From IMG/VR virus record IMGVR_UViG_3300035703_000054, positions 15,267 to 79,266 of that record: DNA of 64,000 nucleotides, one strand, 5' to 3'. The notes beneath the pieces are model-generated. The model had not been told where the DNA came from, searched no databases, and saw nothing but the letters and a program-made list of their open reading frames with translations. Position 1 is the stretch's first letter; every line of letters starts with the position of its first letter. This stretch comes from a virus. A program made the position numbers and the translations under genes. Of this stretch, positions 1 to 35,862 are shown in pieces.

Positions 1-233
1 TCTGGTTGCACTTTCTCGATGACTTCCGGAACACGCGGAATCCCAAATCGATCCGGACAGTGCAACGTGGACGCCGGATAAATCTTATAGAGTTTATCGT
101 GAGGGTCCCCGGCGTAGTTAATACCTAGAACAGTCACTTCGTGTTCTTTACACAGCACATCTAATACACTATGAGTTACACGTGCAAACCCAGTGTTACT
201 GCAAATGTCTCCGTACCAGAGAACTTTCGCCAT
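1..233 (-). CDS. GT-B (GT4-like) glycosyltransferase, N-terminal part; runs off the window edge
   Basis: Manual translation from ATG at 233: MAKVLWYGDICSNTGFARVTHSVLDVLCKEHEVTVLGINYAGDPH...DRFGIPRVPEVIEKVQP, resembling the N-terminal Rossmann domain of GT4 enzymes; absent from the ORF track. Confidence 0.65.
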   Translation of the reverse strand, partial: MAKVLWYGDICSNTGFARVTHSVLDVLCKEHEVTVLGINYAGDPHDKLYKIYPASTLHCPDRFGIPRVPEVIEKVQP

Positions 234-287
234 TCTTGAGGTATCCTCTTGATACGGGTAATATAGCAACACTGTCAATTTACTGAC

Positions 288-1808
288 ATGCCGAGCCGGG
301 AAACTTTCGCTTACCGCCGCGGCGCTCAGATGCGTGCTGTGCGCGCACAAGAGAGCACAGTAAACTCTCTTGATTCTATTTACTCTAAAGCGGCTGACGA
401 TTTTCAGACGTTTTGTACGATTCTGGACAAACCCCCAGCAAAACACATGCTGGAGTGGCATCACCACCTGATAACGGGAGAATCCAACAAGTACTTATTA
501 GATATTGCTGGACCTAATCTCGATATTCTGAGCCCTCGTGGCAGCGCTAAGTCTACTGTACTTAACTTATTTACTGCTTGGATCATCGGTAGGCATACAA
601 CCGCTCAAAGACCGCTACAGATTATCTATGTTTCTTACAACATCGCTACGGCTATTCCTAAAAGCCGAATTATTCGGCAGCTGATCGACTCTCCTGAGTT
701 CCGTAAGATTTTTCCGCGGGTGCAGCTGAAGTCCGGCATGCAATCGGACATCGGTTGGTCGATTGATTTCGATTATGCGGGTATTCCGCGAATCGGTGAC
801 GAGGAATTCACCTTGAGGGCGGCTGGTCTTCGGGGTTCTATTACTTCTAAGCGTGCACACCTAGTTATTGTTGATGACCCTATTAAATCCAGTGCTGATA
901 TTAAGAACCCGGCTATCCGGGACGAGATGAACAACAACTGGTCGTCCGTTATTGCACCGATTATCTTCGAAGGCGGTCGTTCTATCTGTCTGGGGACCCG
1001 CTTCCACCCTCTGGACATCCATAAAACCATGTTTATCCCTGCTAAAGGGTGGAAACAGGTGACTCAGGAAGCTATTACATACGATAACAAGGGGGAACCC
1101 GTCAGTTACTGGCCTGAACAGTGGTCCGCTGATTATCTATTGGGTCAGAAAGAGCTGGACCCCGTGGCTTTTGCGTATCAGTACCAGCAACAGCCCGTGA
1201 TGACCTCTGATTTGGTCGTTTCGCCTGATTTGCTCGTTAAAGGAGAGGTTGTTACTGAATTCGACAGCCTTGCAGTCGGTATTGACCTCTCCGCGAGCAA
1301 AAATGAGACCAGCGATTACACAGCCTTCGTTTTAGGGGGTCGTTTAAAGGATAAATATTACATAATCGACGCGCATCAGTGTCGCTCTATAGGAAACCTT
1401 GAAAAAATAGATCTTTTGTGCGATATGTTGCTTGAATGGGGCATTCTGACGCAACACGACGGGCAGTACATGCCTACGTACTCTACGGTTACCCTCGTAG
1501 TTGAATCAGTGGCATATCAAGCCTCCCTTGCGGCGGATTTACGAAGAGTTTTGATAAACGACAGGGATTTAGGTAATTTACATATTCACGAGGTCAAGGG
1601 ATTTCGAGGGGACAAGATCGCGCGCTTCCGCGGAACTTTAGGTTTGCTAGAAAACAAGAAAATTACGTTCAATAAGTACCGGAAGTTCGATGCTTTGTTC
1701 GATCAGCTGATCAACGTCGGTGCCACAGCGCATGATGATCTTTTAGACGCTTACACTTGGTTGATTACTTTCCTGCAGCGTCGAGGGGAGTTTTCAATTG
1801 AGTACTGA
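288..1808 (+). CDS. terL: Terminase large subunit
   Basis: Walker A SPRGSAKST, Walker B IVDDP, GTRFH coupling motif, RNase H-like nuclease GIDLS..SDYTA and C-terminal HDDLLDA. Confidence 0.92.
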   Translation: MPSRETFAYRRGAQMRAVRAQESTVNSLDSIYSKAADDFQTFCTILDKPPAKHMLEWHHHLITGESNKYLLDIAGPNLDILSPRGSAKSTVLNLFTAWIIGRHTTAQRPLQIIYVSYNIATAIPKSRIIRQLIDSPEFRKIFPRVQLKSGMQSDIGWSIDFDYAGIPRIGDEEFTLRAAGLRGSITSKRAHLVIVDDPIKSSADIKNPAIRDEMNNNWSSVIAPIIFEGGRSICLGTRFHPLDIHKTMFIPAKGWKQVTQEAITYDNKGEPVSYWPEQWSADYLLGQKELDPVAFAYQYQQQPVMTSDLVVSPDLLVKGEVVTEFDSLAVGIDLSASKNETSDYTAFVLGGRLKDKYYIIDAHQCRSIGNLEKIDLLCDMLLEWGILTQHDGQYMPTYSTVTLVVESVAYQASLAADLRRVLINDRDLGNLHIHEVKGFRGDKIARFRGTLGLLENKKITFNKYRKFDALFDQLINVGATAHDDLLDAYTWLITFLQRRGEFSIEY

Positions 1809-2745
1809 TTCTGCCCCCGTGGAAAATACTACAGTGCAAAAAGTTCTCGGCCCAGCCGAGCCTGATATGACGGGCAAAAAAGTATGGGTTGCTATAACGG
1901 CTCACAGTCCTTTAAGTCGTATAGACCCTTTAATTAACGTTGTTAGAGCTTATAACGCTTTTGTTTGCGATGTTTGCATACACGTTTATATAGATTACGC
2001 CTCCCAAGCTTGCGTTGAGGACTTATTAAAAATCCTAGAAACAGTCTCAACTAAGACTGTTGAGATAAAAGTCGCTTCTCCTGAATATGAAAATTGGTAC
2101 CTTACTTGGGCTCACAAGACTGACTTAGCTCTCGCTGTTCTTAACCGTGCTGCGGACTTTTATATCTACCAAGAAAATGATATGGTTCTCCTTTGGGACA
2201 ATTTTGTTTACTGGGCTCGATGGAAGCCGCGTCTCGCTCAATTAGGTCTGGAGCCTGGTTTTGTTCGGTATGAAGTATTTGAGAATCAAAAAATAGCTTT
2301 TGATAATTACTATCCGTATTCTCTATCAAAAGAAACACCTAGTATCTGGGGATCTGTCGGGTTCACGGTACCCAAACTTTTAGTTGTTGATCGTGAAGTT
2401 CACTTTTTTGTTCAACTAGCTAATCCCTATTACGGGGCAATGATCCTCGATCAAAGTGATGCTGAAAGTTACATCCGTTCGGACAGTTTTGATCCGGAGA
2501 AAAGCTACGCCAAGGTTGGGATCCGAAATTGGCCCATCGCGGACCGTAGTTCGTTGGGGTTGACGTTTGAAAGTGTTCCTTCAGGGTATGAGCACAGACG
2601 TTGCGTTCCTGTGCGAAAAGAAAACGGAATGTACAAATTACACTCCAATGGCTTAATCAGACACGATGATCTCAAATATTCTCCAAAGTTAAAAGAACTT
2701 CACGGAAGTTTGTTAGACTGTGATTATCTGTTGAGTCTGGTTTAA
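1798..2745 (+). CDS. Putative GT-A fold glycosyltransferase-like protein
   Basis: N-terminal hydrophobic strand VWVAITAH, DxD-like FYIYQEND motif; family assignment weak. Confidence 0.4.
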   Translation: MSTDSAPVENTTVQKVLGPAEPDMTGKKVWVAITAHSPLSRIDPLINVVRAYNAFVCDVCIHVYIDYASQACVEDLLKILETVSTKTVEIKVASPEYENWYLTWAHKTDLALAVLNRAADFYIYQENDMVLLWDNFVYWARWKPRLAQLGLEPGFVRYEVFENQKIAFDNYYPYSLSKETPSIWGSVGFTVPKLLVVDREVHFFVQLANPYYGAMILDQSDAESYIRSDSFDPEKSYAKVGIRNWPIADRSSLGLTFESVPSGYEHRRCVPVRKENGMYKLHSNGLIRHDDLKYSPKLKELHGSLLDCDYLLSLV

Positions 2746-2746
2746 A

Positions 2747-2896
2747 GTGGCTGGCGGAGGCGCTGCCTTTGTGACCGTCGGATACCAGCTCCAAGGAAGA
2801 ATCTTGTATCAAACGCTCAGCAGAGGCGACGCTTACAGGCTCCGAAAGTTTATCGAGACTCACCGTGGAACGATTTTTTGGTTCAATCCTGCCTGA
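2747..2896 (+). CDS. Small hypothetical protein (49 aa)
   Basis: GTG start directly after upstream stop; manual translation MAGGGAAFVTVGYQLQGRILYQ...FWFNPA; below the ORF-track cutoff. Confidence 0.4.
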   Translation: MAGGGAAFVTVGYQLQGRILYQTLSRGDAYRLRKFIETHRGTIFWFNPA

Positions 2897-3125
2897 AAAC
2901 GATGCTGTGCATCACCCTAAGCACTATACGCAAGGAGCTATCGAGTGCATTGATGCTTTGAAGGCTGCTTTAGGGGCGGAGGGGTTCAAAGCATATTGCC
3001 GCGGAGCCTGCCTCAAATACCTGTGGCGCACAGAGCATAAAAACGGGCTTGAAGATCTTGAAAAGTGTGCGTGGTATTTGAGCAAGTTAATCGAAGAGAC
3101 GCGAGAATCGACTACACTACACTGA
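2865..3125 (+). CDS. DUF3310 family protein
   Basis: VHHPKHYTQGAIECID...YCRGACLKYLWR..HKNGLEDLEKCAWYL signature. Confidence 0.85.
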   Translation: MERFFGSILPENDAVHHPKHYTQGAIECIDALKAALGAEGFKAYCRGACLKYLWRTEHKNGLEDLEKCAWYLSKLIEETRESTTLH

Positions 3126-3139
3126 GAACTTTTTTTATT

Positions 3140-3427
3140 ATGGATGTTCGAGCTTTTGGGGGATATTACGGCTTCAGTGCTTCCCTTCCTTACGCAAGCG
3201 GTTTTTTAGTTAACGCATCAGGAACTAACGTTAACTTTCCCGCATGCCGGGGAATTTATGTCGAAACTGCTAACAAGAGTCAGGATAAAACATTGGTTGT
3301 AACACTGGCTGACTCCCCAAGTAGTCCTCTTACTTTTCAGCATATACGAACTGACGTTCACCTGCCTCTCTCAATTACCTCTATTAGCGGAATTAGCACC
3401 ATCGATCACGTTTACGTGCTCTACTAA
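3140..3427 (+). CDS. Hypothetical protein, possibly virion-associated
   Basis: ATG at 3140 within track ORF 3065..3427; beta-strand-rich. Confidence 0.6.
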   Translation: MDVRAFGGYYGFSASLPYASGFLVNASGTNVNFPACRGIYVETANKSQDKTLVVTLADSPSSPLTFQHIRTDVHLPLSITSISGISTIDHVYVLY

Positions 3428-3654
3428 TGGCTGAAATTGCTACCAAAAAAGATCCCGAAAAGTGGGCTCGCGCAAAAGCCCGAGCACGCAAGAAATTAGG
3501 CGGGCACAGCGCTCGTGCGATGCAGCTTGCGACTAAGTACTATAAAGAAGCGGGCGGACGTTACGAAGGTGCTAAATCTTCGTCTAATCGACTTTCTCGC
3601 TGGGGTAAAGAAGATTGGCAAACTCGTGAAGAGTATGAAGAGGAGTCTAAGTAA
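3427..3654 (+). CDS. Small basic phage protein (N-terminal half of a common aquatic-phage family)
   Basis: KKDPEKWARAKARARKKLGGHSARAMQLATKYYKEAGGRY...WGKEDW; overlaps upstream stop. Confidence 0.7.
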   Translation: MAEIATKKDPEKWARAKARARKKLGGHSARAMQLATKYYKEAGGRYEGAKSSSNRLSRWGKEDWQTREEYEEESK

Positions 3655-3908
3655 TGGCCTCAAGCTATAGCAGCTCGGACTTAGCTAAGCTTTTTTCTGG
3701 CGGTAAAGATAGTTTCCGAGAAGATGTTCTCGATGAGACTACTTCTGAAAAGCTACTTGATCAGCTTTATGCGGATTCTTCAGATGGTATCGGACGTCTA
3801 GATTTATGGAGCCGCGTTTTGGATGCGACCAAGGATGATTTATTAAATCTTGCTTCAGCTTCGCGGAGGACTATATCGCCAACGCAAACATCTGACTCTT
3901 ATCTGTGA
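3654..3908 (+). CDS. Hypothetical acidic protein
   Basis: TAATG coupling with the upstream gene. Confidence 0.6.
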   Translation: MASSYSSSDLAKLFSGGKDSFREDVLDETTSEKLLDQLYADSSDGIGRLDLWSRVLDATKDDLLNLASASRRTISPTQTSDSYL

Positions 3909-4123
3909 TGGCGGATTTAGCTCGAGAAAAAGGACGAACTGAGCGGTATCTGCCTAAAGCTGCTTGGGCTTCCTTGTCCCGTTCGGAACGCCGGGCTACC
4001 GACGAGGCCAAAAAACGAGCCACGCGTGGCGATAAACCTGTAAATACGCAGGTACCTAATACCGCTAAAGCTCGCGAAGCTCGGCGCCGCGCATCTGAGT
4101 ATATTAGAAGGAAGACATCCTGA
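3905..4123 (+). CDS. Small basic phage protein (ERYLPK motif)
   Basis: ERYLPKAAWASLSRSERRATDEAKKRA; 4-nt overlap with upstream gene. Confidence 0.65.
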   Translation: MMADLAREKGRTERYLPKAAWASLSRSERRATDEAKKRATRGDKPVNTQVPNTAKAREARRRASEYIRRKTS

Positions 4124-4127
4124 GGAC

Positions 4128-4445
4128 ATGCGCACTCCTTTTGGTCAAGCTGCGAACTTTTTTGGTCGTGCGTACGCTGATCAAGAAGAGGCTGCTTTAG
4201 CTCAAGATACTGACGATAGTCGTTTTGATATATCCCCAGATTCTGATTTGAGGTTCGAGAATCCAAATATCGGTGCTGTCCCTCCTTCTTTAACTGGTCG
4301 TCCTTCGTCCGAAAGTTCCGCCAATAACTACGTTCGCGGTATGAAGGAATCTTTGCTGGAGACCGCTCGCGAGAAGCGTCGCCCTACCAACGGAAACCCT
4401 GCTTTCCGCGCCTCTGGCGGAGTTAACACCGCAGTTCAGCGCTAA
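4128..4445 (+). CDS. Hypothetical protein
   Basis: ORF in operon orientation, GAGGA upstream of ATG. Confidence 0.55.
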   Translation: MRTPFGQAANFFGRAYADQEEAALAQDTDDSRFDISPDSDLRFENPNIGAVPPSLTGRPSSESSANNYVRGMKESLLETAREKRRPTNGNPAFRASGGVNTAVQR

Positions 4446-4469
4446 TATGCTGACAGCTTTCAGGCTGTC

Positions 4470-5306
4470 ATGCTGTTTGATTGTTTTTTGTATTTTGATG
4501 AAAAAGAGCTTCTTGAGCTGCGCATAGAACTTTTAAAAGATATTGTAGATGGTTTTATAATTACAGATGGTGACCGAACGTTTAAAGGCGATCCTAAGCC
4601 TTTTACGTGCGTTGACACCATCAGAGAACTTGGATTACCGGAGGAAAAGATTCAGGTCCTCCACGTGGAGCTTCCGACACCAGAGGATATTCCTAATCCC
4701 TGGGCTCGGGAGTATGCGCAACGCGATGCGCTTGGGGTGGGTATGCGGATGACACCCCCTGACTCGGTGTTTTTCTTTAGCGACGTAGACGAAATCCCAA
4801 AACCGGAAGCTCTTCTTGAAGCTGTCGAACTGGCTAAGAAGAATCCTTCCCGTTGCGTGCGGCTCTCGATGCCGATGTTTTACGGTCGCGCAGATTTACG
4901 CGTAGTCAATCCGGAGGGCAGTCCTTACGAAGCTCCGAATAATTGGACTTGCGGAACAGTTGTTTTACACGAGCATCTAGATCAAACCCCTTCCCAGATC
5001 CGTCGTAACCCTAATGACACCGTGGTGGGGAACTGCGATGCTGGCTGGCACTTTAGTTGGATGGGTGATGCTGCTCGCATGAAGCGAAAAATTGCTTCAT
5101 TCTCTCATTGTTATGACGTTATACCTAATGCAGTAGCTCCTGCTGACAGTCAGGAAATGCTTGACTTTATCGATTCGTATCGTGCAAGAGCTGGTGCCAC
5201 GGATCCCTTGGGTCGTACTGATCATATTTTGGAGCCTTATCCGCACGAACTTTTACCGGAAAAATTGTTTAAACTTGAGAGAGTTAAGCAGTATTTGTTG
5301 CCGTGA
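4470..5306 (+). CDS. GT17-family glycosyltransferase (MGAT3-like GlcNAc transferase)
   Basis: FDCFLYFDEKELLELRIELL, TFKGDPKP, QRDALG, FFFSDVDEIP, GWHFSWMG signatures. Confidence 0.85.
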   Translation: MLFDCFLYFDEKELLELRIELLKDIVDGFIITDGDRTFKGDPKPFTCVDTIRELGLPEEKIQVLHVELPTPEDIPNPWAREYAQRDALGVGMRMTPPDSVFFFSDVDEIPKPEALLEAVELAKKNPSRCVRLSMPMFYGRADLRVVNPEGSPYEAPNNWTCGTVVLHEHLDQTPSQIRRNPNDTVVGNCDAGWHFSWMGDAARMKRKIASFSHCYDVIPNAVAPADSQEMLDFIDSYRARAGATDPLGRTDHILEPYPHELLPEKLFKLERVKQYLLP

Positions 5307-5956
5307 CTTCCGAGGTGCCGTCCGCTCAAACTGCGACTGCTGAGACGACAGAAACCCGTGTTCCCGGCATGCGTCAGCGTTTTGCCGGGTTGGGTTTGAA
5401 GAAAGCAATTCGACAGGCAGGAACGACTCTTTCGAAGCGAGAGGCTCAGGTAATTGCGAGGCAGAGCAATAAGTCCGTAGCCGAAGTTATGAGCGGCGCC
5501 GTTGATCAAGGCGTGGCCTTAGGCTCCAATCTTGTTAATAAATTCAATCGCGGAAAGCTGGGTCCCAGTTTTTCAAACTCGCAGTACTTGTTAGGGGGGA
5601 TGTTTAGGCCACCGGCAACAACCGGTGTAGCTAAAGCTCTTCAGAACCTGCAACCTCTGCAAGGGGTCAGCATGCCTACAGGCAGTGTGTACGCAGGAAG
5701 CACAGCTATTACACGAGAAGGTCAGACCACTTTCAACCCGGTGGTCCTTCCGAAAGCTGTTTTAAAAGGAGCGATGATGAATATCTCCGGGGATTTGGGG
5801 TACAGTGCGCCTACCCAAAGCGGCACTTCTGGGGAAGCTGCGGCCACGGCTGCGTCTACTACTCCATCCGCACCGGCTCAGGCCAAACGAACCACCGCTA
5901 AGCAAAAGGCTAAAAAAATGATTCAAAAACGACAAGCAAAGCGGTCGCAAAAATGA
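5303..5956 (+). CDS. Hypothetical protein with basic C-terminal tail
   Basis: GTGA overlap with GT17 gene; K/R-rich end. Confidence 0.6.
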   Translation: MTSEVPSAQTATAETTETRVPGMRQRFAGLGLKKAIRQAGTTLSKREAQVIARQSNKSVAEVMSGAVDQGVALGSNLVNKFNRGKLGPSFSNSQYLLGGMFRPPATTGVAKALQNLQPLQGVSMPTGSVYAGSTAITREGQTTFNPVVLPKAVLKGAMMNISGDLGYSAPTQSGTSGEAAATAASTTPSAPAQAKRTTAKQKAKKMIQKRQAKRSQK

Positions 5957-6012
5957 AGACGGCGCTACTCGGGTTCTACCTTATTTAAAGTTTCATAGGA
6001 TTTATAAACGAC

Positions 6013-8247
6013 ATGGCGGCTGATACTCTGGGCGTTCGTCAGCGGTTCACTGAGATCCTGGAAGCCTCTAGGACTCAAGATCGCTCGCGCCAAGCCGCCA
6101 CCATGGTTGTGCTTGGTCATATTCAGCAGATGACACTGCTGATGATTAAAAAAGGCTTGTTTTTCTACTGTGAACAAGATACATACAGAGCTAGAACGCA
6201 GTTCCTTCAGGATCTTATTGATTTAAATAAACTTGATATCCGTTTTCCGGCGATTATTCGTAATTTCCTTATCGACGGCTGTGGGCTTTTCTATTTTCGA
6301 CCAGACCCCAAACTTAAATATCAAATTTACTTTTTCACCAAAGATCAGTACCGGGTATATCACGATATTAACGGTAATATAGAAGAAGTTGTAATTATCT
6401 ACAGCTACAAGGTTCGCAACACGACACTAGGTCTACCTTCCGATAGTTATGGGATGAACGAACGGTATGTTCGTATTTCCATTACTAATGATCGTATTGA
6501 TGAATTCGAAGCTAATACAGAACTTAGTTTCGAGTTAGAGCCAGGGGCTGTCCTTACTCCTAAAAACAGCCGCCCCAATACTCTGGGGTTTATTCCAGCT
6601 GTTGAAGTTTTAAACAAACCAAACAGCAGCGGCACAGAGGGCGAAGGTGAGTTTGAGCCCTTCATGGAGCAAATTGTGCTTCATGATCAGATGATGCGCA
6701 ACATTGCCAAGAACATCGAGTTCTTTGGTAATCCGACGCTCATCAGTTCGCGTCCACGTAGTGATCTGGTCGAAGCTGCGGATGAAGGACGTACATTCCG
6801 ACCGACTATCAGTAGCCAAAGTGGTTTCGCTGGTCGGGACACACCGTCGACTCGGGTGTCGGAGCCTTTCGGTTCTGGCTCCACCCTGGGCGGCCTAAAA
6901 GTTCCTCGGGTTATTGCGAACATCGAACCCAATGACCGTGTGGGCTATATGACGCCTGACCCGGTTAACGGGGATATGAATCGTTACGCATTGTTGCTTC
7001 GTGAAGAAATTCGTACGGCACTAGGCGGTGTTGATGAGATTTCGATCTCAGCCGGTGCTACTGCAACAGAAATTAAAGGTTTGATGGGTCGCGCTCAAGC
7101 GACTGCTTTGCGGAAAAATAAAAGCTTTTTGACGTACGGTTTTTGTCGTTTGTTGGAAATGATCATCTTCCACCAGGAAGAGATCTTCCGTGAAAGCTTT
7201 ATTGCGGTAACGGGGATGAAAGCCCCTAAACCTCCTAAAGAACAAACAGCGGAAACTGTTGAGAAATATCAAATTTCTCAAAACAAGTTTGAAGCAAAAG
7301 TCGAAACAGAAATAAGGAAATCCTTAGAGAACAACGATGTTCCTTCCGGGGTTTACGGTCTGCCTCCTGACGGAAATCGTGATGTTACTTATAGATTCCA
7401 GGGCGATGTCTACGAAGATACGGCGTATGACATTAACCAGAAGTCAATCGTCGTACGAAACCTCCAAGAACTCGGGGTGGATAGCGTCGAAGCACTTAAA
7501 TATCTATTCCCCGATAAGACAGATGCTGAACGTGGTGAGATGTTGAAGGGATTCCCCTTCCGCATGATTCAACAAACGCAAGGCGCATTCCAGCAATTTT
7601 TAGTATTATTAAGTCAGATGTTGCAGACGCCACATCCCCTTGCGCCGAACCAACCCTTAGCGGCTGACCCTCGGCTAAACCTGACCGGCCTGTTATACAG
7701 GACGTTCGATCACCTTGCGCAAGAACTGACTTACTCGGGCAGCTATGAGCCAGCAGATCCCAGCTTCGATCCCGAGCCCGGTCTCCCCGGCGGTAGCGGC
7801 CCCTCAGGCAGCACCCTCGGCGGATATGGGCTCAACAGCCTACCCGCAGTGGGTAGCCAATACCCAGGGGGTGCCTTCGGTGGCTATGCCCCAAATGCAG
7901 TCGCCGGCAACACCGGTTACGGCCCCTTCTACCAGCAACCAGTACAACCAGTCTCCGTCAGCCTCCTCCCCGTCCAACCCGTGGGAAGCAGCGATGGGCA
8001 GCCTGGAACGGGTGGTTTCTCGGATCTCCCCGTCCCCCAGCCAGGCACAACAGTATCCTCAGTACCAAATGGTGCCGCAGGATACTCAACAGTACAGTCA
8101 GAATTTACAGGCCCAACCCTGGCTGTACCAAGCGCCTACGGATCAGCAGATCTCGTACAACAGCGCGTATACAATCCCGACTTCCTATCCGACTTCTACG
8201 GAAGCGCAACCCGCTCAACTAAGCGAGGAAACAAGCGCCGTAGTTAA
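6013..8247 (+). CDS. Probable portal protein with low-complexity C-terminal extension
   Basis: 744 aa, between terminase and scaffold/capsid genes; helical core with ISAGATATEIK segment; call based on position and size. Confidence 0.65.
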   Translation: MAADTLGVRQRFTEILEASRTQDRSRQAATMVVLGHIQQMTLLMIKKGLFFYCEQDTYRARTQFLQDLIDLNKLDIRFPAIIRNFLIDGCGLFYFRPDPKLKYQIYFFTKDQYRVYHDINGNIEEVVIIYSYKVRNTTLGLPSDSYGMNERYVRISITNDRIDEFEANTELSFELEPGAVLTPKNSRPNTLGFIPAVEVLNKPNSSGTEGEGEFEPFMEQIVLHDQMMRNIAKNIEFFGNPTLISSRPRSDLVEAADEGRTFRPTISSQSGFAGRDTPSTRVSEPFGSGSTLGGLKVPRVIANIEPNDRVGYMTPDPVNGDMNRYALLLREEIRTALGGVDEISISAGATATEIKGLMGRAQATALRKNKSFLTYGFCRLLEMIIFHQEEIFRESFIAVTGMKAPKPPKEQTAETVEKYQISQNKFEAKVETEIRKSLENNDVPSGVYGLPPDGNRDVTYRFQGDVYEDTAYDINQKSIVVRNLQELGVDSVEALKYLFPDKTDAERGEMLKGFPFRMIQQTQGAFQQFLVLLSQMLQTPHPLAPNQPLAADPRLNLTGLLYRTFDHLAQELTYSGSYEPADPSFDPEPGLPGGSGPSGSTLGGYGLNSLPAVGSQYPGGAFGGYAPNAVAGNTGYGPFYQQPVQPVSVSLLPVQPVGSSDGQPGTGGFSDLPVPQPGTTVSSVPNGAAGYSTVQSEFTGPTLAVPSAYGSADLVQQRVYNPDFLSDFYGSATRSTKRGNKRRS

Positions 8248-8662
8248 CCACTTCGGTATTGAAGCCCCTGCGATTCTGAATGAGTACGCCGTTACTCTGG
8301 AAGATACGCTAATTCAGCAGAACGAAAACATGGAAGCCCTCGCTCTGCGAGCCGGCGCCATGGAGCACATTCTGACTGATCCCGATCAGCTGGCTGACTA
8401 CACCAATCGTTTCTTCACGGAGGTCTACCCCGTGGACGACGAAATGGAGTATGGCTACGGGCAGCAGTACGAGCCTCAGTACGATCAGTTCCCTGCCGTT
8501 CCCGCTTCTACTACCGGCGGTGCCCGCGGCGCTGATCCTGAGTCCCAGTGGAATGGTTTCACTCAGACCATGGATCAAAACCCCGAGAACGCTTGGCGCT
8601 ATCTGTCTCAAATGAGTCCAGAAGCTCTGCGTAGCAAGCTGTTGTTCCTGGACAACGCTTGA
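7745..8662 (+). CDS. Probable capsid scaffolding protein
   Basis: Q/P/S/Y-rich N-terminus, acidic helical C-terminus, followed by a terminator; overlaps the portal ORF by 503 nt. Confidence 0.55.
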   Translation: MSQQIPASIPSPVSPAVAAPQAAPSADMGSTAYPQWVANTQGVPSVAMPQMQSPATPVTAPSTSNQYNQSPSASSPSNPWEAAMGSLERVVSRISPSPSQAQQYPQYQMVPQDTQQYSQNLQAQPWLYQAPTDQQISYNSAYTIPTSYPTSTEAQPAQLSEETSAVVNHFGIEAPAILNEYAVTLEDTLIQQNENMEALALRAGAMEHILTDPDQLADYTNRFFTEVYPVDDEMEYGYGQQYEPQYDQFPAVPASTTGGARGADPESQWNGFTQTMDQNPENAWRYLSQMSPEALRSKLLFLDNA

Positions 8663-8691
8663 GCTAGTATCCTTTCGGAGGATTCAAGGGG

Positions 8692-8719: not shown

Positions 8720-8756
8720 CTTGTTAGAGTCTTTTCTCGAAAAACGATTTTGACTT

Positions 8757-9678: not shown

Positions 9679-10425
9679 ATGTATACGCCTATAAGTAATT
9701 GGCGGTACGATAGCGGCTTTCACAAAGTTCAGAGCGGTCCGAACCACGAGGGTTATATCGTGGTCAGCTCTGGAATTGTAGATACGGGAGCGGACATAGG
9801 TGTTGTTACTCCCGGAGCTCCGAATAGCGGCCTCTGGTACAACACAGATGATTGGCGGGCGGTACCAAGCGCTGTTTCCGGTTATTGGACCAATTATTCG
9901 GATGTTGACTACGCTCCTAGCGGCGCTTTAAGCAGTTACGTCGGGTATCGCCCGCTAGGTGTTTCGACGATCGCTAATGCAAAAGTTTCTACGTCTTATG
10001 GACCTCAATTTGGGTTGAGGACCACTGGGCAATCTACGTATTTCAACGGTGTTGCACCGGCATCTCAAGCGTACACGCCATACAACACTCCAGATGAAAA
10101 CACGGCAGCTCAGGGGTATACCGGAGGCGGTGTAACTCATGGTCGGTATGAGGGAGGCATTTTAACGAATCCGACTAACGACACCTCAGGATCCCGTGCC
10201 GCGTGGATCTATAACCCCCCTGTTTACTGCAAAACCTACACTGAAACGGTGCGCAGTACGGCTCCTGGTTTGATGTCCACGGCTCTTCGGTACATATACC
10301 GCGGTAAAGCCGGAACGTATGTCTCCAACTTCGCGGCCATTTATCACCAGCTGCCCGAAGGTGTTAGGTCGATGGTGCGCACGTATTCGCCTACTGTTAA
10401 TTCCAGCAACCAAAAATCGATTTGA
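9679..10425 (+). CDS. Hypothetical virion-associated protein (S/G/T/Y-rich)
   Basis: ORF directly upstream of the capsid gene. Confidence 0.6.
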   Translation: MYTPISNWRYDSGFHKVQSGPNHEGYIVVSSGIVDTGADIGVVTPGAPNSGLWYNTDDWRAVPSAVSGYWTNYSDVDYAPSGALSSYVGYRPLGVSTIANAKVSTSYGPQFGLRTTGQSTYFNGVAPASQAYTPYNTPDENTAAQGYTGGGVTHGRYEGGILTNPTNDTSGSRAAWIYNPPVYCKTYTETVRSTAPGLMSTALRYIYRGKAGTYVSNFAAIYHQLPEGVRSMVRTYSPTVNSSNQKSI

Positions 10426-20072: not shown

Positions 20073-20738
20073 GTGACTTCAACACCCGTTATCCTTCTCC
20101 TAAAACGATCAGGTCAGTCTTCTGATCGTCCTCAAACTAGCGTTGTTCAGAACGGCGAACTTGCTATCGCCGTGGGCGCTGCAGATCCGGGTCTATATTT
20201 CGAAGACTCTGCCGGAAGCATCCGAAAAATCGGTCCTTCGCACTACGGAACAACTGCGCCTAATTCCACGCCTGTTGGTTTAGCCGGAAACTCCGTTGGT
20301 GAGCTGTGGGCAGATAGTTCGACAGGAAGTTATTACTTAAAAGTCTGGACTGGCGGCGCCTGGCAAAAGGTAGGTGCCGGCTTTGCGGATTCAGCTACTA
20401 CCGCAACCACGGCAACTACAGCTACCTTTGCTACTCAGGCTTCTACAGCTACCCTTTCTTCTGGAACGATTCTGGCTTCGGGTGCTGTATTTTCCCGAAC
20501 AGCAACTTTAGCTTCGGGAACAATTTTAGCTTCAGGTGCTTTATTTGCTAATACAGCAACTTTAGCTTCGGGAGCAATTTTAGCTTCTGGAGCCATTCAG
20601 AGTTCCACGGTGGTCTTAAGCGGACTCCCTAATCCCGTTCTAAATCCGTCCGGAACTCTGATTTATCAGGTTCAGCCGTCTGGTGTTTTTGCAGCCGGTC
20701 TGTATGTTCGAGCTACCGATACTTGGCTCCTTGTTTAA
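20073..20738 (+). CDS. Tail-fibre-like virion protein with ASG repeats
   Basis: LLKRSG...P..GELAI N-terminus, GELWADS..LKVWTGGAW motif, three TATLASG(T/A)ILASGA-type repeats. Confidence 0.6.
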   Translation: MTSTPVILLLKRSGQSSDRPQTSVVQNGELAIAVGAADPGLYFEDSAGSIRKIGPSHYGTTAPNSTPVGLAGNSVGELWADSSTGSYYLKVWTGGAWQKVGAGFADSATTATTATTATFATQASTATLSSGTILASGAVFSRTATLASGTILASGALFANTATLASGAILASGAIQSSTVVLSGLPNPVLNPSGTLIYQVQPSGVFAAGLYVRATDTWLLV

Positions 20739-28652: not shown

Positions 28653-29576
28653 ATGACCCTAGCTCCTTGCCCCACTCACGGAAGTACATATCGCGCTCTG
28701 CATGAGCATAACTTCCGCGGCATCGTGGAGGTCATCGACGATCTTTTCCTTACTATCTCTGGAGTCGTGGGAACAACTAGCTACTCCAGGTGCGCCGTAG
28801 GATACCCTTGGAATTTCGAGGGTATTGTACGTGCGCTAGAAGATCTTAACACTACTATAAGCGGTATTCAAGGCGGAGGTACGAATATCGCCGCTGGTTC
28901 TGGTATTTACACAACTACTAGCGGTGACGTCACTCTTATTAACAGCGCTATTGTTGGCGGTTCTGGTGTTTATATCACTTATAGCGGAAGTTACGCACAA
29001 GTTAATACCAGTGTTACGGCAGCTTCTGGCATCATTTATACCGCTGGTTCGGGTCTTTATCTTTCTGATGGCGGCACTCGCCTGAACTTAGGTGCTTACG
29101 GAGAGGGATCTACTTCTGTCACTTACAACGGCAATCAAGTAGCCATCAGCGGCGCTGCTGGCGGAGCTTCTGCTGTCACGGTCTCCGGCTCTCCTGAGGC
29201 GGGGTACAAGGCCGGTCAGCTCTGGTTTGACACTAATCAGGGTCGTTTGTTCGTCTATGCCAGCGGCAACGGTGTCGCGTCGCCCGCGTGGTATCAGACC
29301 AATTCTGATTCTGTTGTTCTCAAAGGGGATCTTCCGCCTTCTGGCACTGGACTTAATGCGCCTGTTCGGGACGGAAGCCTCTGGTTCAGCACTCTAGTAG
29401 GTAATTTGTTTGTATATGATGCAACTACGAGCGGATGGTATGAAACAGGACCTTCCAGAACTTTTGCATACGGTCCCACTGAGCCTGCCGCTACAAGCGC
29501 TCCAGGAGCAGGTTGGTATGACACGGCTAATCAACATATTCGAGTTTGGACTGGCACAGGCTGGGTTCAGGCTTAG
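28653..29576 (+). CDS. Tail-fibre-like virion protein
   Basis: Repeated G.LWF.T...L.VY motifs; 13 Ser-Gly dipeptides. Confidence 0.65.
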   Translation: MTLAPCPTHGSTYRALHEHNFRGIVEVIDDLFLTISGVVGTTSYSRCAVGYPWNFEGIVRALEDLNTTISGIQGGGTNIAAGSGIYTTTSGDVTLINSAIVGGSGVYITYSGSYAQVNTSVTAASGIIYTAGSGLYLSDGGTRLNLGAYGEGSTSVTYNGNQVAISGAAGGASAVTVSGSPEAGYKAGQLWFDTNQGRLFVYASGNGVASPAWYQTNSDSVVLKGDLPPSGTGLNAPVRDGSLWFSTLVGNLFVYDATTSGWYETGPSRTFAYGPTEPAATSAPGAGWYDTANQHIRVWTGTGWVQA

Positions 29577-30412: not shown

Positions 30413-30931
30413 GTGTTTGTTTTAGACGGAAAACCTCTTGCCCTAGATGTTCCGTTTGAAGCGAACGGAACTCTTTATCCTGCTAACTGGCTTCGTTTAG
30501 CTACTCCAGACGAACGAGCTGCTATAGGAATTACAGAAGAACCTGATCCTCCTTATTATGATCAGCGTTTCTATTGGGGGTATACCGCGAGCGGGACTTT
30601 AATTCCCAAAGATCATGGTGTTTTGGTGTCTGGCTGGGTTGATCAAACTCGTCAAACAGCTAATACTATTCTCTTCCCGACTGACTGGATGGTTGTTAGG
30701 GAAGTTGATAACGGCGTTCCGATGTCGAGCGGAGTTAAAGCTTGGCGTCAGGAAACGCGAGAAGCTTGCGAGGTAAAGGTCTACATAATCCGAGACACTG
30801 ATACCACTGATGAATTAGCTAGCTACATAACCGGACCCCTTTACCCGGTGTGGCCGCCGCTAGATCCCCCTACTCCGGTCGATCCTTCTGGCGTTAGTCC
30901 GTCTGGTGTTACTCCCTCTGGAGTTGTGTGA
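30413..30931 (+). CDS. Tail fibre assembly-like protein
   Basis: YPANWLRLAT..ER.AIGITEEPDP..YDQRFYWG; PTDWMVVRE; PSGV x3 tail. Confidence 0.6.
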   Translation: MFVLDGKPLALDVPFEANGTLYPANWLRLATPDERAAIGITEEPDPPYYDQRFYWGYTASGTLIPKDHGVLVSGWVDQTRQTANTILFPTDWMVVREVDNGVPMSSGVKAWRQETREACEVKVYIIRDTDTTDELASYITGPLYPVWPPLDPPTPVDPSGVSPSGVTPSGVV

Positions 30932-31465: not shown

Positions 31466-32257
31466 ATGGCAACTCGTAAACCTCTAGTTGTAATTAGCGG
31501 TCTCACGTCCGAGTTGCCGCCTGGTGATCTAGTACCAGGTATTGATACTACTGCTCAAGCTTCGGGCAACGCAGCTTTAGTTGTTGCTTCGAACGCTTTA
31601 GCTAGCGGAAATCTTGGTATTGCTGATGCTGCCGTTGCGCTAGCATCCGGTAATGCAGCCCTGATCGTGGGCGCCAACGCGCTTTCTTCAGGTAACGCGG
31701 CTCTTGCATCCGGTAACGCAGCGTTAGTTAACTCTGCAACAGCGCTTGCATCTGGCAATGCTGCTCTGGTTGTTTCAACCAGCGCTCTAGCTTCCGGAAA
31801 TGCTGCTCTTGTTAATGCCGCCGCTGCCCAGGCTTCAGGTAATGCCGCTTTAGGTTCTCTAGCGAATAAATACGATAAAACCGGCGGTCCGATTAGCGGT
31901 CCTGTTGTTGTCCAATCTCAATCGATTGGATCTCCTACAACTATTCAGGCTTCTGGCGTCATTATTTTAAACTTCGGTGCCGGTAATAACTTTGAGGTCA
32001 CGCTCACTAGCGGCACTCAAACGTTAGCTTCCCCCGCCAACGCCAGCGGCGGTCAAACAGGCACAATTATCGTTCGTCAGGATAATACCGGATCCCGCTT
32101 GCTGACTTATAGCGGCGCCTGGTCTTTCCAGAGTAATACTGCTCCAACGTTAACGACTACCGCAAGCGGCGTGGATTTGCTCGCCTATTACGTTGTTAAC
32201 CCCAGCCGTATTAACACGGTAGCTACTTTAAACTACGGCTCCGGTACTGTCGCCTGA
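31466..32257 (+). CDS. Fibre protein with ALASGNA repeats
   Basis: Repeat region followed by a beta-rich C-terminal domain (TLASPANASGGQTGTIIVRQD.TGSR). Confidence 0.7.
   Translation: MATRKPLVVISGLTSELPPGDLVPGIDTTAQASGNAALVVASNALASGNLGIADAAVALASGNAALIVGANALSSGNAALASGNAALVNSATALASGNAALVVSTSALASGNAALVNAAAAQASGNAALGSLANKYDKTGGPISGPVVVQSQSIGSPTTIQASGVIILNFGAGNNFEVTLTSGTQTLASPANASGGQTGTIIVRQDNTGSRLLTYSGAWSFQSNTAPTLTTTASGVDLLAYYVVNPSRINTVATLNYGSGTVA
31553..31867 (+). repeat. Eight A(L/Q)(A/S)SGN units, mostly 14-aa period
   Basis: Directly visible in the translation; synonymous codons vary between units. Confidence 0.9.
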
Positions 32258-32267: not shown

Positions 32268-34691
32268 ATGAGCGGTTTAGTAGGTAATCCTTTTCTGCTT
32301 ACTTCTGCTGGCGCTGCGGGGTATCAGATCAGCCGGTCGCTGCGGTTCAACAGTAGTGACAGTGCCTACTGTGACCGCAGTTTCACTTCGGCAGGAAACA
32401 GAAAGACTTGGACGTTTGCAGCGTGGGTCAAACTCTCTGCGTTAACAGGAACTAATTCAAGTGGCGGCGGAACTCTCTTTCATTGCCGCAATGGTACAGG
32501 CGATGATGGAATTACCGATTTTCTTATCAATACAGACGGCACAGTCGTTTTTACCGGCGGCGCTAGCACATGGCTCACCACGACACAGGTGTTGCGTGAC
32601 TTCTCAGCTTGGTATCACTTAGTCATGTCGGTCGATACGACCGCCGCCACTGCATCTAATAGGCTACGCCTCTACATAAATGGATCACAAGTAACGACAT
32701 TCAACGTCAATGTTAGTCCGACCCAGAACTCTGATCTTGCTATCAACCAAGCTGCAACACACCGGATTGGCGGACGCCCCTCTTTCAGTGTGTTTTTCAA
32801 CGGCTACCTAGCCGACATCCACTTCATCGACGGACAAGCCCTAACACCATCCAGCTTCACAGAAGTCAGTGCCACTACTGGGCAACTCGTTCCTATTGCT
32901 TACACCGGCAGTTTCGGTACAAATGGCTTCTGGCTGAAGTTCAGCGATAACTCAGCCGCCACTGCCACCACCCTTGGCAAGGATTACAGCGGCAACAGCA
33001 ATAACTGGACGCCGAATAACCTCAGCGTCAGCGCTGGTGCAGGCAACGATTCCCTCGTAGACACCCCGACTTCTTACGGCACCGATACAGGCGTGGGCGG
33101 GGAGGTGAGGGGAAATTATGCGACATTTAATCCCGTTGCTGCAGGGCTTGGCACTTTGTCAAACGGCAATCTCGATGTTGCCGCCGCCGGTGGTCACGGT
33201 ACAAGGAACGCAACAATCGGCGTATCAAGCGGGAAATGGTACTCAGAGTTTAATCTACCAACAGCGGCAGTTTGTGGGTTAGGAATTACATCCCGTAACA
33301 CTGCTTATGCTACTTGGCCCGATAACACTGCTGGGAATTACTGGTTTTATTTTGATGGAGGGACTAAGTATTTTTATCCGGGCGGCGGCACTCAGGCTAC
33401 GAGTATTGGTGCCCCTGCAACTGGTATTTGGAAAGTTGCCTTAGACCTTGATTCCGGCAAATGCTGGCTCGGCACCGGCAGTATTTGGTACGACTCAGCG
33501 TGGAATCAAACCGGAAACCCTGCCACAGGTGCTAATCCTACTTTCTCATCATTACCTGCAGCAACCTATTTTATGTTTGCTGAGACTCAAATAGGTACAT
33601 CTTGGCAAGCTAATTTCGGTCAGCGCCCGTGGGGACAAACTTGTCCAAGCGGATTCAAGGCCCTGTGCGATACCAACCTGCCCGCCCCAGTAGTCGCCAA
33701 GCCTAATAGCGTCTTTGATGTTGCTCTGTGGACTGGGAATGGATCTGCACGCAGTATTACGGGTCTGAACTTCAACCCTGATTTTGTTTGGATCAAAGGC
33801 CGTTCTGGCGCTACCGATCACGCTCTATATGACGCAGTGCGTGGTGCAACTATTGATCTTGTAAGCAATAGCACTGCCGCTGAAACAACTCAAACCCAAG
33901 GCTTGACGGCTTTCAACAGTGACGGGTTCAGCCTTGGCACACTGGCGAAAGTCAATACCAACACAGCCACCTATGCAGGCTGGGCGTGGGACGCCGGCAG
34001 TTCAACGGTCACCAACACACAAGGCTCCATCACTAGTCAGGTGAGGGCTAATGCCAGTGCGGGGTTCTCGATTGTTACTTATACGGGGACAGGTGCCAAT
34101 GCAACGGTGGGGCATGGGTTGGGCGTAACGCCTAGTTTCATTATTGTGAAAAGCCGAAGCAATACTACTGATTGGCAGGGTTACCACGGCGCATTGGGCA
34201 AGGACTACACCATTCAGTTAATGTCAACAGGGGCCGCTATCAACGTAAGCAACTATTGGAATGGCGGTGTAAGTTCTACTACTTTTGGCATCAATGGTGC
34301 ATACGATGGCATTAACGCAAATGGGTATACCTACGTCGCTTATTGTTTTTCGCCAGTAGCCGGGTACTCTTCTTTCGGCAGCTACACCGGCAATGGCAGC
34401 GCGGATGGGCCGTTTGTGTATACGGGGCATCGTGTGAGATGGTTGCTAGTTAAGAATGCGACTAATGGGGGAAGTTGGGTTCTCCATGATACAACTCGAT
34501 CCACATACAACGTTTCTGGGCAAGAACTGCTGCCGGACTCTTCTGGCGCGGAATACACTTTTACTCGCTTTGATTTCTTGTCAAATGGGTTTAAGGGGCG
34601 CAGCACCAACAACGCCAGTAACACCAACGGCGATATCTATATTTACGCCGCCTTCGCAGAAAACCCCTTCCAATACGCCCGCGCCCGATGA
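32268..34691 (+). CDS. Large receptor-binding/tail fibre protein (LamG/concanavalin-like + SPRY-like domains)
   Basis: SLRFNS, WTFAAWVK, WYHLV, RLYING, FNGYLADIHFIDG; GKWYSEF; FSIVTYTG. Confidence 0.75.
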   Translation: MSGLVGNPFLLTSAGAAGYQISRSLRFNSSDSAYCDRSFTSAGNRKTWTFAAWVKLSALTGTNSSGGGTLFHCRNGTGDDGITDFLINTDGTVVFTGGASTWLTTTQVLRDFSAWYHLVMSVDTTAATASNRLRLYINGSQVTTFNVNVSPTQNSDLAINQAATHRIGGRPSFSVFFNGYLADIHFIDGQALTPSSFTEVSATTGQLVPIAYTGSFGTNGFWLKFSDNSAATATTLGKDYSGNSNNWTPNNLSVSAGAGNDSLVDTPTSYGTDTGVGGEVRGNYATFNPVAAGLGTLSNGNLDVAAAGGHGTRNATIGVSSGKWYSEFNLPTAAVCGLGITSRNTAYATWPDNTAGNYWFYFDGGTKYFYPGGGTQATSIGAPATGIWKVALDLDSGKCWLGTGSIWYDSAWNQTGNPATGANPTFSSLPAATYFMFAETQIGTSWQANFGQRPWGQTCPSGFKALCDTNLPAPVVAKPNSVFDVALWTGNGSARSITGLNFNPDFVWIKGRSGATDHALYDAVRGATIDLVSNSTAAETTQTQGLTAFNSDGFSLGTLAKVNTNTATYAGWAWDAGSSTVTNTQGSITSQVRANASAGFSIVTYTGTGANATVGHGLGVTPSFIIVKSRSNTTDWQGYHGALGKDYTIQLMSTGAAINVSNYWNGGVSSTTFGINGAYDGINANGYTYVAYCFSPVAGYSSFGSYTGNGSADGPFVYTGHRVRWLLVKNATNGGSWVLHDTTRSTYNVSGQELLPDSSGAEYTFTRFDFLSNGFKGRSTNNASNTNGDIYIYAAFAENPFQYARAR

Positions 34692-34761
34692 CACGCACCT
34701 CTAGCAAAGTCTACCTTTGTATAAGCCGCACAGGTTATACAGCCTTAGAGATAGGTAACTC

Positions 34762-34968
34762 ATGAAAACCAACCACAAACAATTTATTCGGGCCTTTATC
34801 GTCGAATTTCTGGGCAATGAGGATGTTCGCCATCGGCTGGATGCACTTTCCGACTCCGTAAAGCTTCGCACTGGCGAAGATCTCGACCCGTTTGAAGCAA
34901 TCCAGTTCTATGAGCAAGAAGTGAGTCGAATCGAAAAGCTCTTTAACTATCCTGAGTTGCCCTCCTAG
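34762..34968 (+). CDS. Hypothetical protein
   Basis: 68-aa ORF with GGTAA upstream. Confidence 0.5.
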   Translation: MKTNHKQFIRAFIVEFLGNEDVRHRLDALSDSVKLRTGEDLDPFEAIQFYEQEVSRIEKLFNYPELPS

Positions 34969-34983
34969 TGAACACGCCTAGTG

Positions 34984-35862
34984 CTATTTTAATTTTTTAA
35001 ACAGATTTTTCGCTTGCCTCTGCCATATAGTTTTCCAGTGTTTCCAGAATTTTTGACATAATTCCTGGGTTTCTGTGTACTTACCCGTTTTTTCAATTTG
35101 TTGCAGCGTTTCGACCGCAGCTTCCCACGTATCCTCACAGACGAACGGCAACGTGGGCTCACCTAGGAACACACCCTGCCAGTAAGACGGATGCAGATGC
35201 CAGTATCCGGTGTTTCTCACGCAGACTGGGACTGATCCCGCTTCAAGCGCTTCGTATAATCTAAATGAATCCATACTATCCTGTCCTGGAGGGCATAGAA
35301 CATATTTAGAACTCTGCAGTAACTTTGTGTACTCTTTAGTTTGCAAACCGTCCACAGCTCCGAAACCGCTACATGTGTGAACCTTATTAGGCGTTAAAAC
35401 ATCGAGTTTTTCTATTATATTTTTTCGTTCGCCGTGAAGGGTTCCTGCAAACGACCAGAGCAGATCCTTTGAAGGTTGATTTTGTAAGTTTTTAACTAAG
35501 CCTATTTTATAACCTAAGCCGAATACGTTAACTCGCGGATGACCTAGAAGCATCGGATTTATATAGTTACGCATCAGCCCCACGCATTGCGGGTCGTGGA
35601 TCCATTCGCAAGGATCCCTTAAATTCTCGTCGCTAAGCAGCACAATCGCATATTTCTTTTGATTTGTTCTTAAACGATCTAAAACGCTACGATACGGAAC
35701 TGCATGGTTACAAATTAACACCGTATTTTCATCTGTCTTTATTTGATCTGCTTCAAACTCAACTTCTATGTAATCCTGAACCTGACTAAATAGAAACCTA
35801 AGCCAGTCAACCTCCCACAATGAGCTGTCCTTAGTGAGCCATTGCACTCGGGGGCGGTTCAT
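34984..35862 (-). CDS. Exostosin-like (GT47) glycosyltransferase
   Basis: LWSFAG...EYTKLLQSSKYVLCPPG..SMDSFRLYEALEAGSVPV; likely start MNRPRVQW at 35862. Confidence 0.8.
   Translation of the reverse strand: MNRPRVQWLTKDSSLWEVDWLRFLFSQVQDYIEVEFEADQIKTDENTVLICNHAVPYRSVLDRLRTNQKKYAIVLLSDENLRDPCEWIHDPQCVGLMRNYINPMLLGHPRVNVFGLGYKIGLVKNLQNQPSKDLLWSFAGTLHGERKNIIEKLDVLTPNKVHTCSGFGAVDGLQTKEYTKLLQSSKYVLCPPGQDSMDSFRLYEALEAGSVPVCVRNTGYWHLHPSYWQGVFLGEPTLPFVCEDTWEAAVETLQQIEKTGKYTETQELCQKFWKHWKTIWQRQAKNLFKKLK

Follow-up and report, generated by a model that had tools for sequence, protein, structure and literature searches.

Conserved soluble glycosyltransferases around the packaging and head genes of an uncultured relative of Synechococcus phage S-EIV1 may sugar-coat the virus particle

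Genes at the locus

The DNA analyzed here is a 64-kb window covering bases 15267-79266 of the 82,205-bp IMG/VR record IMGVR_UViG_3300035703_000054, which is rated 100% complete. Its subjects are a set of glycosyltransferase (GT) genes at the packaging, head, and fibre modules and an excess of Ser-Gly (SG) dipeptides in the structural proteins, two features that an earlier note, made from the sequence, had joined into one virion glycosylation system. The window makes up most of an 82-kb genome that belongs to an uncultured phage, a distant relative of Synechococcus phage S-EIV1. S-EIV1 proteins match the portal, terminase, major capsid protein, and several others at 23-65% identity, the fibre domains match fibres of cyanophages PSS2, S-CBP2, SS120-1, S-CBS4, and S-TIM5, and no isolate phage gave a match at the DNA level. 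Based on the S-EIV1-like core proteins together with the cyanophage-like fibre domains, picocyanobacteria are probably the hosts. A related portal was found in at least 377 IMG/VR contigs, the best 80 of which are 78-100% identical. The genes central to this analysis are as follows, with positions in the window unless the genome is named.

3..233, minus strand: GT4-family glycosyltransferase, first 77 codons; the gene runs upstream out of the window and is divergent from the terminase gene
288..1808, plus strand: large terminase subunit (TerL; phrog_38, 3.6e-73; Terminase_6C)
1798..2745, plus strand: predicted GT-A-fold nucleotide-sugar transferase, no CAZy family (AlphaFold2 and Foldseek); overlaps the TerL stop codon
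4470..5306, plus strand: GT17-family glycosyltransferase (Pfam PF04724, 1e-15), just upstream of the portal gene
6013..8247, plus strand: portal protein (phrog_20475, 1e-158; phrog_64), 42-46% identity to the S-EIV1 protein
34984..35862, minus strand: GT47/exostosin-like glycosyltransferase, at the end of the fibre module on the opposite strand
Genome 13182-14324, minus strand: GH130-like beta-propeller, upstream of the window and next to the GT4 gene
Genome 8321-9103, plus strand: GT2, upstream of the window
Genome 7560-8276, minus strand: FkbM methyltransferase, upstream of the window
Genome 3812-4429, minus strand: CmcI/TylF-like sugar methyltransferase, upstream of the window

Identity of the enzymes

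The four glycosyltransferases that the earlier note had named were all confirmed, GT17 and GT47 through Pfam, GT4 through Pfam together with similarity to the chlorovirus protein B736L, and the product of 1798-2745 as a GT-A fold through AlphaFold2 and Foldseek. PHROGs hold no family for GT17, GT47, GT-A, or GT4. The whole GT4 gene spans genome positions 14324-15499 (391 amino acids [aa]) and matched Pfam Glycos_transf_1 (PF00534) at 30 bits against a cut-off of 26.4 (4e-7). Comparison with B736L of chlorovirus NY-2A (PDB 3OY2) gave a full-length match (E 6e-19, residues 14-389 to 14-391).

The GT17 protein scored 58.2 bits against a Pfam cut-off of 26 (55.2 bits in the whole-genome search). 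Its match covers 57% of the profile (positions 75-273 of 348), such that the acceptor-binding parts may differ. Members of this family catalyze inverting beta-1,4-GlcNAc transfer from UDP-GlcNAc to a mannose acceptor. The GT47 open reading frame (ORF) extends over 34984-35955 on the minus strand, with 35862, the start chosen in the earlier note, judged to be the likely true start. Its match to Pfam Exostosin_GT47 (PF03016) is marginal, at 37.8 bits against a cut-off of 33.4 over profile positions 161-258 of 293; it also matched RXYLT1_C (32.1 bits against 27), and its match to EXT1 in the PDB reached only E 0.35.

Searches with the product of 1798-2745, whose true start may lie about 16 codons downstream, returned no Pfam, PHROG, or PDB sequence match, and an Atlas search gave a single weak GT2 lead (score 0.92). 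An AlphaFold2 model built from 23 homologues had a predicted local distance difference test score (pLDDT) of 85 and a predicted template-modeling score (pTM) of 0.85. Foldseek searches of the PDB, Swiss-Prot models, and viral models matched this model at probability 1.0 to GT25, GT6, LH3, GT8, and GT43 enzymes, at template-modeling (TM) scores of only 0.35-0.48, and at E 1e-6 to ColGalT1, LH3, GT6 enzymes, and viral GT-A proteins. In the alignment and model, an invariant D120 and an E126-N127-D128 cluster follow a beta-strand and might represent the DxD motif that binds metal and nucleotide sugar. On the strength of the model, we assign this protein as a predicted GT-A-fold enzyme. For the GH130-like protein, the Pfam match is below threshold and protein-language-model neighbours support the assignment. 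A Kyte-Doolittle scan detected no hydrophobic 19-mer reaching 1.6 in any glycosyltransferase or methyltransferase, and the products of these genes are thus predicted to be soluble, without a membrane segment.

Two of these matches touch on soluble sugars. GH130 enzymes are beta-mannoside phosphorylases (Pfam description; Atlas clusters), and GT4 has a weak match to a cyanobacterial sucrose-phosphate-synthase-like protein (6KIH, E 0.0015). The genes might accordingly serve an auxiliary metabolic role, with soluble sugars or storage glycans as substrates; GH130-type phosphorolysis and GT4-type synthesis of mannosides or compatible solutes, for instance, could redirect host carbon. However, a simple solute pathway does not account for as many as seven different genes for transferases and methyltransferases, the GT17 and GT47 families act on glycoconjugates, and the position at the head module would be left unexplained. 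We consider this use of the genes highly improbable.

Conservation and placement of the genes

The presence of each gene in relatives was counted only where the contig flank was long enough. On this basis, GT17 was present in 72 of 72 relatives (50-99% identity), GT-A in 43 of 43, GT4 in 32 of 32, and the GH130-like gene in 30 of 30. GT47 was found in four of five large relatives and in all three of those at least 90% complete. Seven genes (GT4, GH130-like, GT2, FkbM, GT-A, GT17, and GT47) are syntenic in three complete relatives at 43-98% identity, the CmcI-like gene being the one upstream glyco gene outside this conserved set. Metagenome clusters containing GT17 numbered 372.

The GT-A gene overlaps the TerL stop by 11 nucleotides (nt), and GT17 overlaps the gene downstream of it by 4 nt. 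A promoter and terminator scan of positions 1-11000 yielded counts not above those of shuffles and no convincing terminator between TerL and portal. The overlaps and the lack of a terminator signal above chance bear out the view that GT-A and GT17 lie inside a terminase-portal unit, as the earlier note had placed them. Overall, the glyco genes belong to the fixed core of the lineage, keep to its packaging, head, and fibre modules, and do not make up a variable island. A 217-aa gene (5303-5956, plus strand) separates GT17 from the portal gene here and was found in only 6 of the 80 relatives; the majority have a gap of about 186 nt from the end of GT17 to the portal gene.

Isolate phage genomes were searched by tblastn (50,697 records; E ≤ 1e-3 for GT17, GT47, GT-A, and GT2, and E ≤ 1e-8 for GT4). 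No homologues of GT47 or GT-A emerged, while GT17 had two weak homologues and GT2 had one. For GT4, orthologues were recovered in S-CBS4 (gp014; 46% full-length identity) and S-EIV1 (40%), Tetrasphaera phage TJE1 yielded a homologue, and one Microcystis phage matched in part. In S-CBS4, the orthologue has the portal gene on one side and head genes on the other, and a methyltransferase gene is close by (S-CBS4 9916-12282). In TJE1, the homologue is the last gene of a cassette (nucleotidyltransferase, kinase, epimerase, and methyltransferase) that lies upstream of the terminase gene (TJE1 5388-10731). In Gordonia phage GMA2, Orf4, which is weakly GT17-like, comes after the terminase and the probable portal. 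S-CBS4 and TJE1, as unrelated isolate phages, may themselves be candidates for virion glycosylation.

Possible targets of the enzymes

Some phages are known to attach diverse glycans to DNA by means of their glycosyltransferases (Pyle et al. 2024, as cited in PMC12619734; PMC12801897), and sugar hypermodification of the phage's own DNA would protect it against restriction. The genome, however, encodes no ThyA-like pyrimidine hydroxymethylase and carries an ordinary ThyX. Moreover, the glycosyltransferases are in the late structural arm, away from the replication genes, and five to six transferases plus sugar methyltransferases exceed what known DNA modifications need. DNA is the least probable target of those considered here.

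A stronger competitor, though still a doubtful one, is remodelling of a host envelope glycan (lipopolysaccharide O-antigen, exopolysaccharide, or S-layer glycan), for example as a block to superinfection or a change of the cell surface. GT4, GT2, and FkbM/CmcI-type methyltransferases are typical of O-antigen and glycolipid pathways, and the phage also carries exported wall-modifying genes, such as one with a YkuD domain. This is, in addition, the common interpretation of glycosyltransferase and GH130 genes in cyanomyoviruses (PMC12801897). Against it, the genome was found to lack any flippase, polymerase, or ligase of envelope-glycan pathways, including a Wzy_C/PglL-type ligase, and any membrane-anchored enzyme; strict conservation as a core beside the packaging and head genes sets the set apart from a variable island; and related genes occur in the head modules of unrelated phages.

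With no envelope-glycan flippase, polymerase, or ligase, no membrane enzyme, no ThyA-like hydroxymethylase, and a fixed core placement, we therefore favour, tentatively, cytoplasmic glycosylation of a virion protein as the role of the enzyme set. The presence of related genes in head modules of independent lineages (S-CBS4, TJE1, and GMA2) also counts for this reading. The soluble set would comprise GT4 and the GH130-like protein, encoded divergently from the terminase gene, GT2 and FkbM further upstream, GT-A and GT17 inside the terminase-portal transcription unit, and GT47 after the fibre genes. These enzymes would act late in infection, in the cytoplasm, on host nucleotide sugars, and at least one structural protein of the phage would directly receive a short, possibly methylated glycan. 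The analysis establishes what the genes are, how far they and their order are conserved, and that the products lack membrane segments; late co-expression, the virion protein target, and the nature of the glycan are what we infer here.

Several points weigh against virion protein glycosylation. The C terminus of the major capsid protein (MCP) has no Ser/Thr-rich tail, and among the proteins examined, only the small structural-arm protein of 30413-30931 ends in a Pro/Ser/Thr-rich one. GT17, GT47, GT-A, GT2, and GT4 had no mycobacteriophage match at the BLAST level in the tblastn search. GT4, the GH130-like gene, and GT47 lie on the strand opposite to the late operon, so that expression together with the structural genes is an assumption. 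In addition, soluble enzymes of the GT4 and GT2 families can use lipid-linked intermediates as substrates on the inner side of the membrane. Finally, the usual interpretation of cyanophage glycosyltransferases is that they alter the host surface or DNA (PMC12801897).

Comparison with known glycosylation systems

In chloroviruses, the capsid glycan is built and methylated in the cytoplasm by soluble virus-encoded glycosyltransferases, a set that includes an exostosin-like xylosyltransferase, methyltransferases, and the GT4 proteins B736L and A546L (PMC9614988). Chlorovirus capsid glycosylation (PBCV-1 A064R, A075L, and A546L; NY-2A B736L) is the closest working parallel. Both systems feature soluble cytoplasmic enzymes without signal peptides, and GT4/GT-B, exostosin-like, and sugar O-methyltransferase components. 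They differ in that chloroviruses are eukaryotic giant viruses with proven capsid N-glycosylation, whereas glycosylation of a virion protein is a prediction for the phage. Furthermore, B736L and A546L are themselves uncharacterized, and the chlorovirus set as described is without GT17 and GH130-like components.

To our knowledge, glycosylated particles have been proven only for a few mycobacteriophages, the sole precedent among phages; Freeman et al. reportedly described O-glycosylation of the virions of Che8, Corndog, and Myrna in 2023. The glycosylation of mycobacteriophage virions is likewise cited in PMC12619734 and PMC12363180. Phage-encoded glycosyltransferases there are thought or shown to decorate virion proteins, and both cases involve the notion of a tailed phage shielded by glycans. 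Their enzyme families are different, however, with no BLAST-level similarity to those found here, including enzymes of the Che8 gp110/Corndog gp38 type. Capsid and tail-tube proteins of mycobacteriophages bear their glycans on Ser/Thr-rich C-terminal extensions, which the capsid protein here lacks, and the host here is probably a cyanobacterium.

Phages S-CBS4 and S-EIV1 share true GT4 orthologues with the present lineage, and the S-CBS4 copy lies in the head module, as described above. Neither has GT17, GT47, GT-A, GT2, or a GH130-like protein; S-EIV1 has GT4 only, S-CBS4 has GT4 plus the methyltransferase, and in S-EIV1 GT4 is found in the replication arm.

Ser-Gly dipeptides in the structural proteins

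The SG dipeptides that the earlier note had counted by hand are located in the first five proteins listed here; the sixth is a neighbouring fibre gene.

9679..10425, plus strand: SG-enriched head-module protein, 7 SG (observed/expected [O/E] 2.3, p 0.022)
20073..20738, plus strand: tail fibre or minor tail protein with tandem LASG repeats, 10 SG (phrog_356, 9e-19)
28653..29576, plus strand: SG-rich fibre-like protein, 13 SG (O/E 2.7)
30413..30931, plus strand: small structural-arm protein, 6 SG, with a Pro/Ser/Thr-rich tail of three PSGV(S/T) units
31466..32257, plus strand: tail fibre with nine ASGNAAL-type tandem units (residues 29-132), 16 SG, and a C-terminal domain shared with other phage fibres
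32268..34691, plus strand: large fibre or virion protein, DUF7483 domain (Pfam 8e-111; phrog_24898, tail fibre)

The five counts were exact (16 in 263 aa at 31466-32257, 13 in 307 at 28653-29576, 10 in 221 at 20073-20738, 7 in 248 at 9679-10425, and 6 in 172 at 30413-30931), and among the low-SG comparators, the exon-2 ORF of the MCP had 0 SG and the 632-aa polymerase had 1. Within-protein shuffles placed SG beyond composition in all five (p < 0.0005 for four, and p = 0.022 for 9679-10425), and SG was far commoner than GS in most of them (16 versus 4, 10 versus 2, and 6 versus 0). Across the structural arm (30 plus-strand ORFs), 104 SG were observed against 58.7 expected (z 6.3-6.4; 0 of 1000 shuffles), ranking SG first among the dipeptides scored. 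The signal is concentrated: the arm without the five proteins had no significant SG excess (z 1.4), and the large fibre protein of 32268-34691 was not enriched (O/E 0.9).

Amplification of tandem repeats alone was rejected as an explanation of the excess. When repeats were collapsed to one unit, 14 of the 104 SG were lost, and the 90 that remained still exceeded the 56 expected (z 5.0). The components of the excess are tandem repeats, SG at strand starts and hairpin turns in the protein of 28653-29576, and scattered sites. The N terminus of the 20073-20738 protein matches the S-CBS4 tail fibre, and its repeat region (residues 126-178) holds six LASG units. The C-terminal domain of the 31466-32257 fibre matches tail fibres of PSS2, S-CBP2, and Caulobacter phage S2B, with SG at homologous turn positions in S-CBP2 and S2B; a search for relatives of this fibre returned nine close ones only. 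The copy number of SG repeats varies between relatives, in this fibre included.

In the protein of 28653-29576, SG opens short beta-strand units and occupies turns of hairpins. Its central SG-strand units are gained and lost between homologues, and its C-terminal part consists of repeated hairpin motifs with SG turns that are invariant in the alignment, one hairpin carrying TG in place of SG. An AlphaFold2 model from a seven-sequence alignment was unusable (pLDDT 45), and C-terminal hairpins with SG at the turns were weakly suggested. Orthologues of this protein retain 10-16 SG and those of the 30413-30931 protein retain 4-6. The protein of 9679-10425 has no family match, and six of its seven SG sites are largely conserved in 43 homologues.

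Together, these data show that the SG signal is real, extends beyond repeat amplification, is concentrated in a few fibre-like proteins, and is kept by orthologues. In structural proteins, the Ser of SG was more conserved than other Ser (0.76 versus 0.53 and 0.68 versus 0.50), and no such difference was seen in nonstructural proteins; this is compatible with a glycosylation sequon and with a structural turn alike. Exchange of Ser to Thr at SG was not preferred. The sites are flanked by small or hydrophobic residues, and about half have an acidic residue within four positions. The replication arm had no SG excess. Its most enriched dipeptide is GG, and a 399-aa ORF without a family match (49551-50750, minus strand) contains 88 glycines (22%) and 0 SG, where 6.6 would be expected.

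Ser-Gly excess and glycosyltransferases across phages

The earlier note had proposed to test across related phages whether SG enrichment co-occurs with GT17 and GT47. Structural proteins were scanned for dipeptides phage by phage and pooled, with the following SG z-scores. For S-CBS3, Syn5, T7, and S-CBP2, the absence of glycosyltransferases is by record annotation only.

This phage: full glycosyltransferase set, z 6.3 (rank 1)
S-EIV1: GT4 orthologue only, z 5.0 (rank 1)
S-CBS4: GT4 orthologue, z 3.3 (rank 4)
TJE1: GT4 homologue, z 2.1
Lambda: no glycosyltransferase, z 4.6 (rank 2)
S-CBS3: none annotated, z 4.6 (rank 1)
Syn5: none annotated, z 1.7
T7: none annotated, z -0.1
S-CBP2: none annotated, z -0.7

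We know of no glycosyltransferase in lambda, and its SG excess, like that of S-CBS3, is equal to those of the GT-bearing phages. S-EIV1, in which GT17, GT47, GT-A, GT2, and the GH130-like gene are absent, has individual fibres as SG-dense as those of this phage. Many proteins contribute to the excess in lambda and S-CBS3 (O/E about 2), and per-protein density is higher here, as in S-EIV1. Equal enrichment without these enzymes is an outcome that the earlier note had itself named as refuting its SG claim, as far as GT17 and GT47 are concerned, and the idea that SG excess tracks the GT4 orthologue was dropped as evidence on the same grounds, lambda and S-CBS3 being equally enriched. With an equal excess in lambda, S-CBS3, and S-EIV1, SG richness is therefore no evidence for glycosylation sites.

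The earlier note had drawn on the metazoan proteoglycan linkage (GT14 xylosyltransferase, GT47/GT64 exostosins), which shares with this phage the SG dipeptide and a GT47-family domain. A search of the complete genome for GT14/Branch (PF02485) gave no match at E ≤ 0.1, whereas control genomes did match, and the analogy fails on the absence of this initiating enzyme. In addition, SG lies here in fibre repeats with small or hydrophobic flanks, and the animal pathway is Golgi-luminal. The resemblance is nominal.

Proteoglycan-like O-glycans on the Ser of SG motifs in surface fibres, serving as a shield or for adhesion, are a very unlikely product of these enzymes. The idea is helped by the strong enrichment of SG and its concentration in fibre-like proteins, by the higher conservation of SG Ser in structural proteins only, by the PSGV(S/T) tail of the 30413-30931 protein, and by S-EIV1 and S-CBS4, which are also SG-enriched and retain the GT4 orthologue. 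It is opposed by the strong pooled excess in lambda and S-CBS3, with no annotated glycosyltransferase; by the same SG density in S-EIV1 without five of the enzymes; by the loss of 14 SG on repeat collapse and the variable copy number of repeats; by SG at conserved turn positions in the S-CBP2 and S2B fibres; and by the missing GT14 and the lack of preference for Thr. A narrower version, slightly less probable again, would have the B736L-like GT4, common to this lineage, S-EIV1, and S-CBS4, O-glycosylate Ser in exposed SG turns of fibres, with GT-A, GT17, GT47, GT2, the GH130-like protein, and the methyltransferases extending and capping the glycan.

The alternative that the earlier note itself had allowed, SG as a structural turn motif in fibre folds, is judged the best reading, and SG richness is a separate structural property (turns and tandem fibre repeats), not a sequon. 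Of the multi-step glycan pathway put forward in that note, the gene content among late genes stands, and is larger than was seen then (a GH130-like gene, GT2, and two methyltransferases upstream); the SG acceptor part does not. We rank glycosylation of a virion protein first, remodelling of the host surface next, and the SG sequon after that, with DNA and soluble-sugar targets lower still.

Other features of the genome

The major capsid gene (10507-12617) looks interrupted, with an ORF at 10729-11559 between a short 5' exon and a 3' ORF; the latter encodes 290 aa that are 65% identical to the S-EIV1 capsid protein. Downstream, where the DNA is GC-rich (56% GC), two long ORFs on opposite strands overlap (12632-13507, plus, and 12626-13534, minus). 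Of these, the 291-aa ORF on the plus strand is the genuine gene, with 91% identity to a relative's ORF. Its product shares 27% identity with the S-EIV1 protein encoded next after the capsid and is possibly a decoration protein.

Two plus-strand genes encode wall-degrading proteins: 22384-23703, with SLT transglycosylase and M23 peptidase domains, is probably a virion-associated lysin, and 38698-39936 combines a phage lysozyme with a C39/C70-like cysteine peptidase domain in one protein. In the early arm, a MoxR-type AAA+ ATPase (bpMoxR) adjoins a VWA-domain protein (55622-58635, minus strand).

Implications

The excess of SG is common in virion proteins of phages without glycosyltransferases and is not usable as a glycosylation signal. 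If the B736L-like GT4 did act on SG turns, tailed phages would possess a defined sequon for O-glycosylation, and the glycan coat of their receptor-binding fibres would be tunable. S-EIV1 and S-CBS4 are cultured and carry only the shared GT4, which opens the question to direct experiment.

A strictly conserved set of soluble glycosyltransferases around the packaging and head genes may sugar-coat the particle of this virus. The lineage is abundant in aquatic metagenomes, as judged from its portal relatives in IMG/VR and its GT17 clusters. If its virions are coated by GT17, GT47, and a novel GT-A enzyme, families almost absent from cultured phages, particle glycosylation would be widespread in environmental phages, with consequences for host recognition, the stability of particles, grazing, and aggregation in water.

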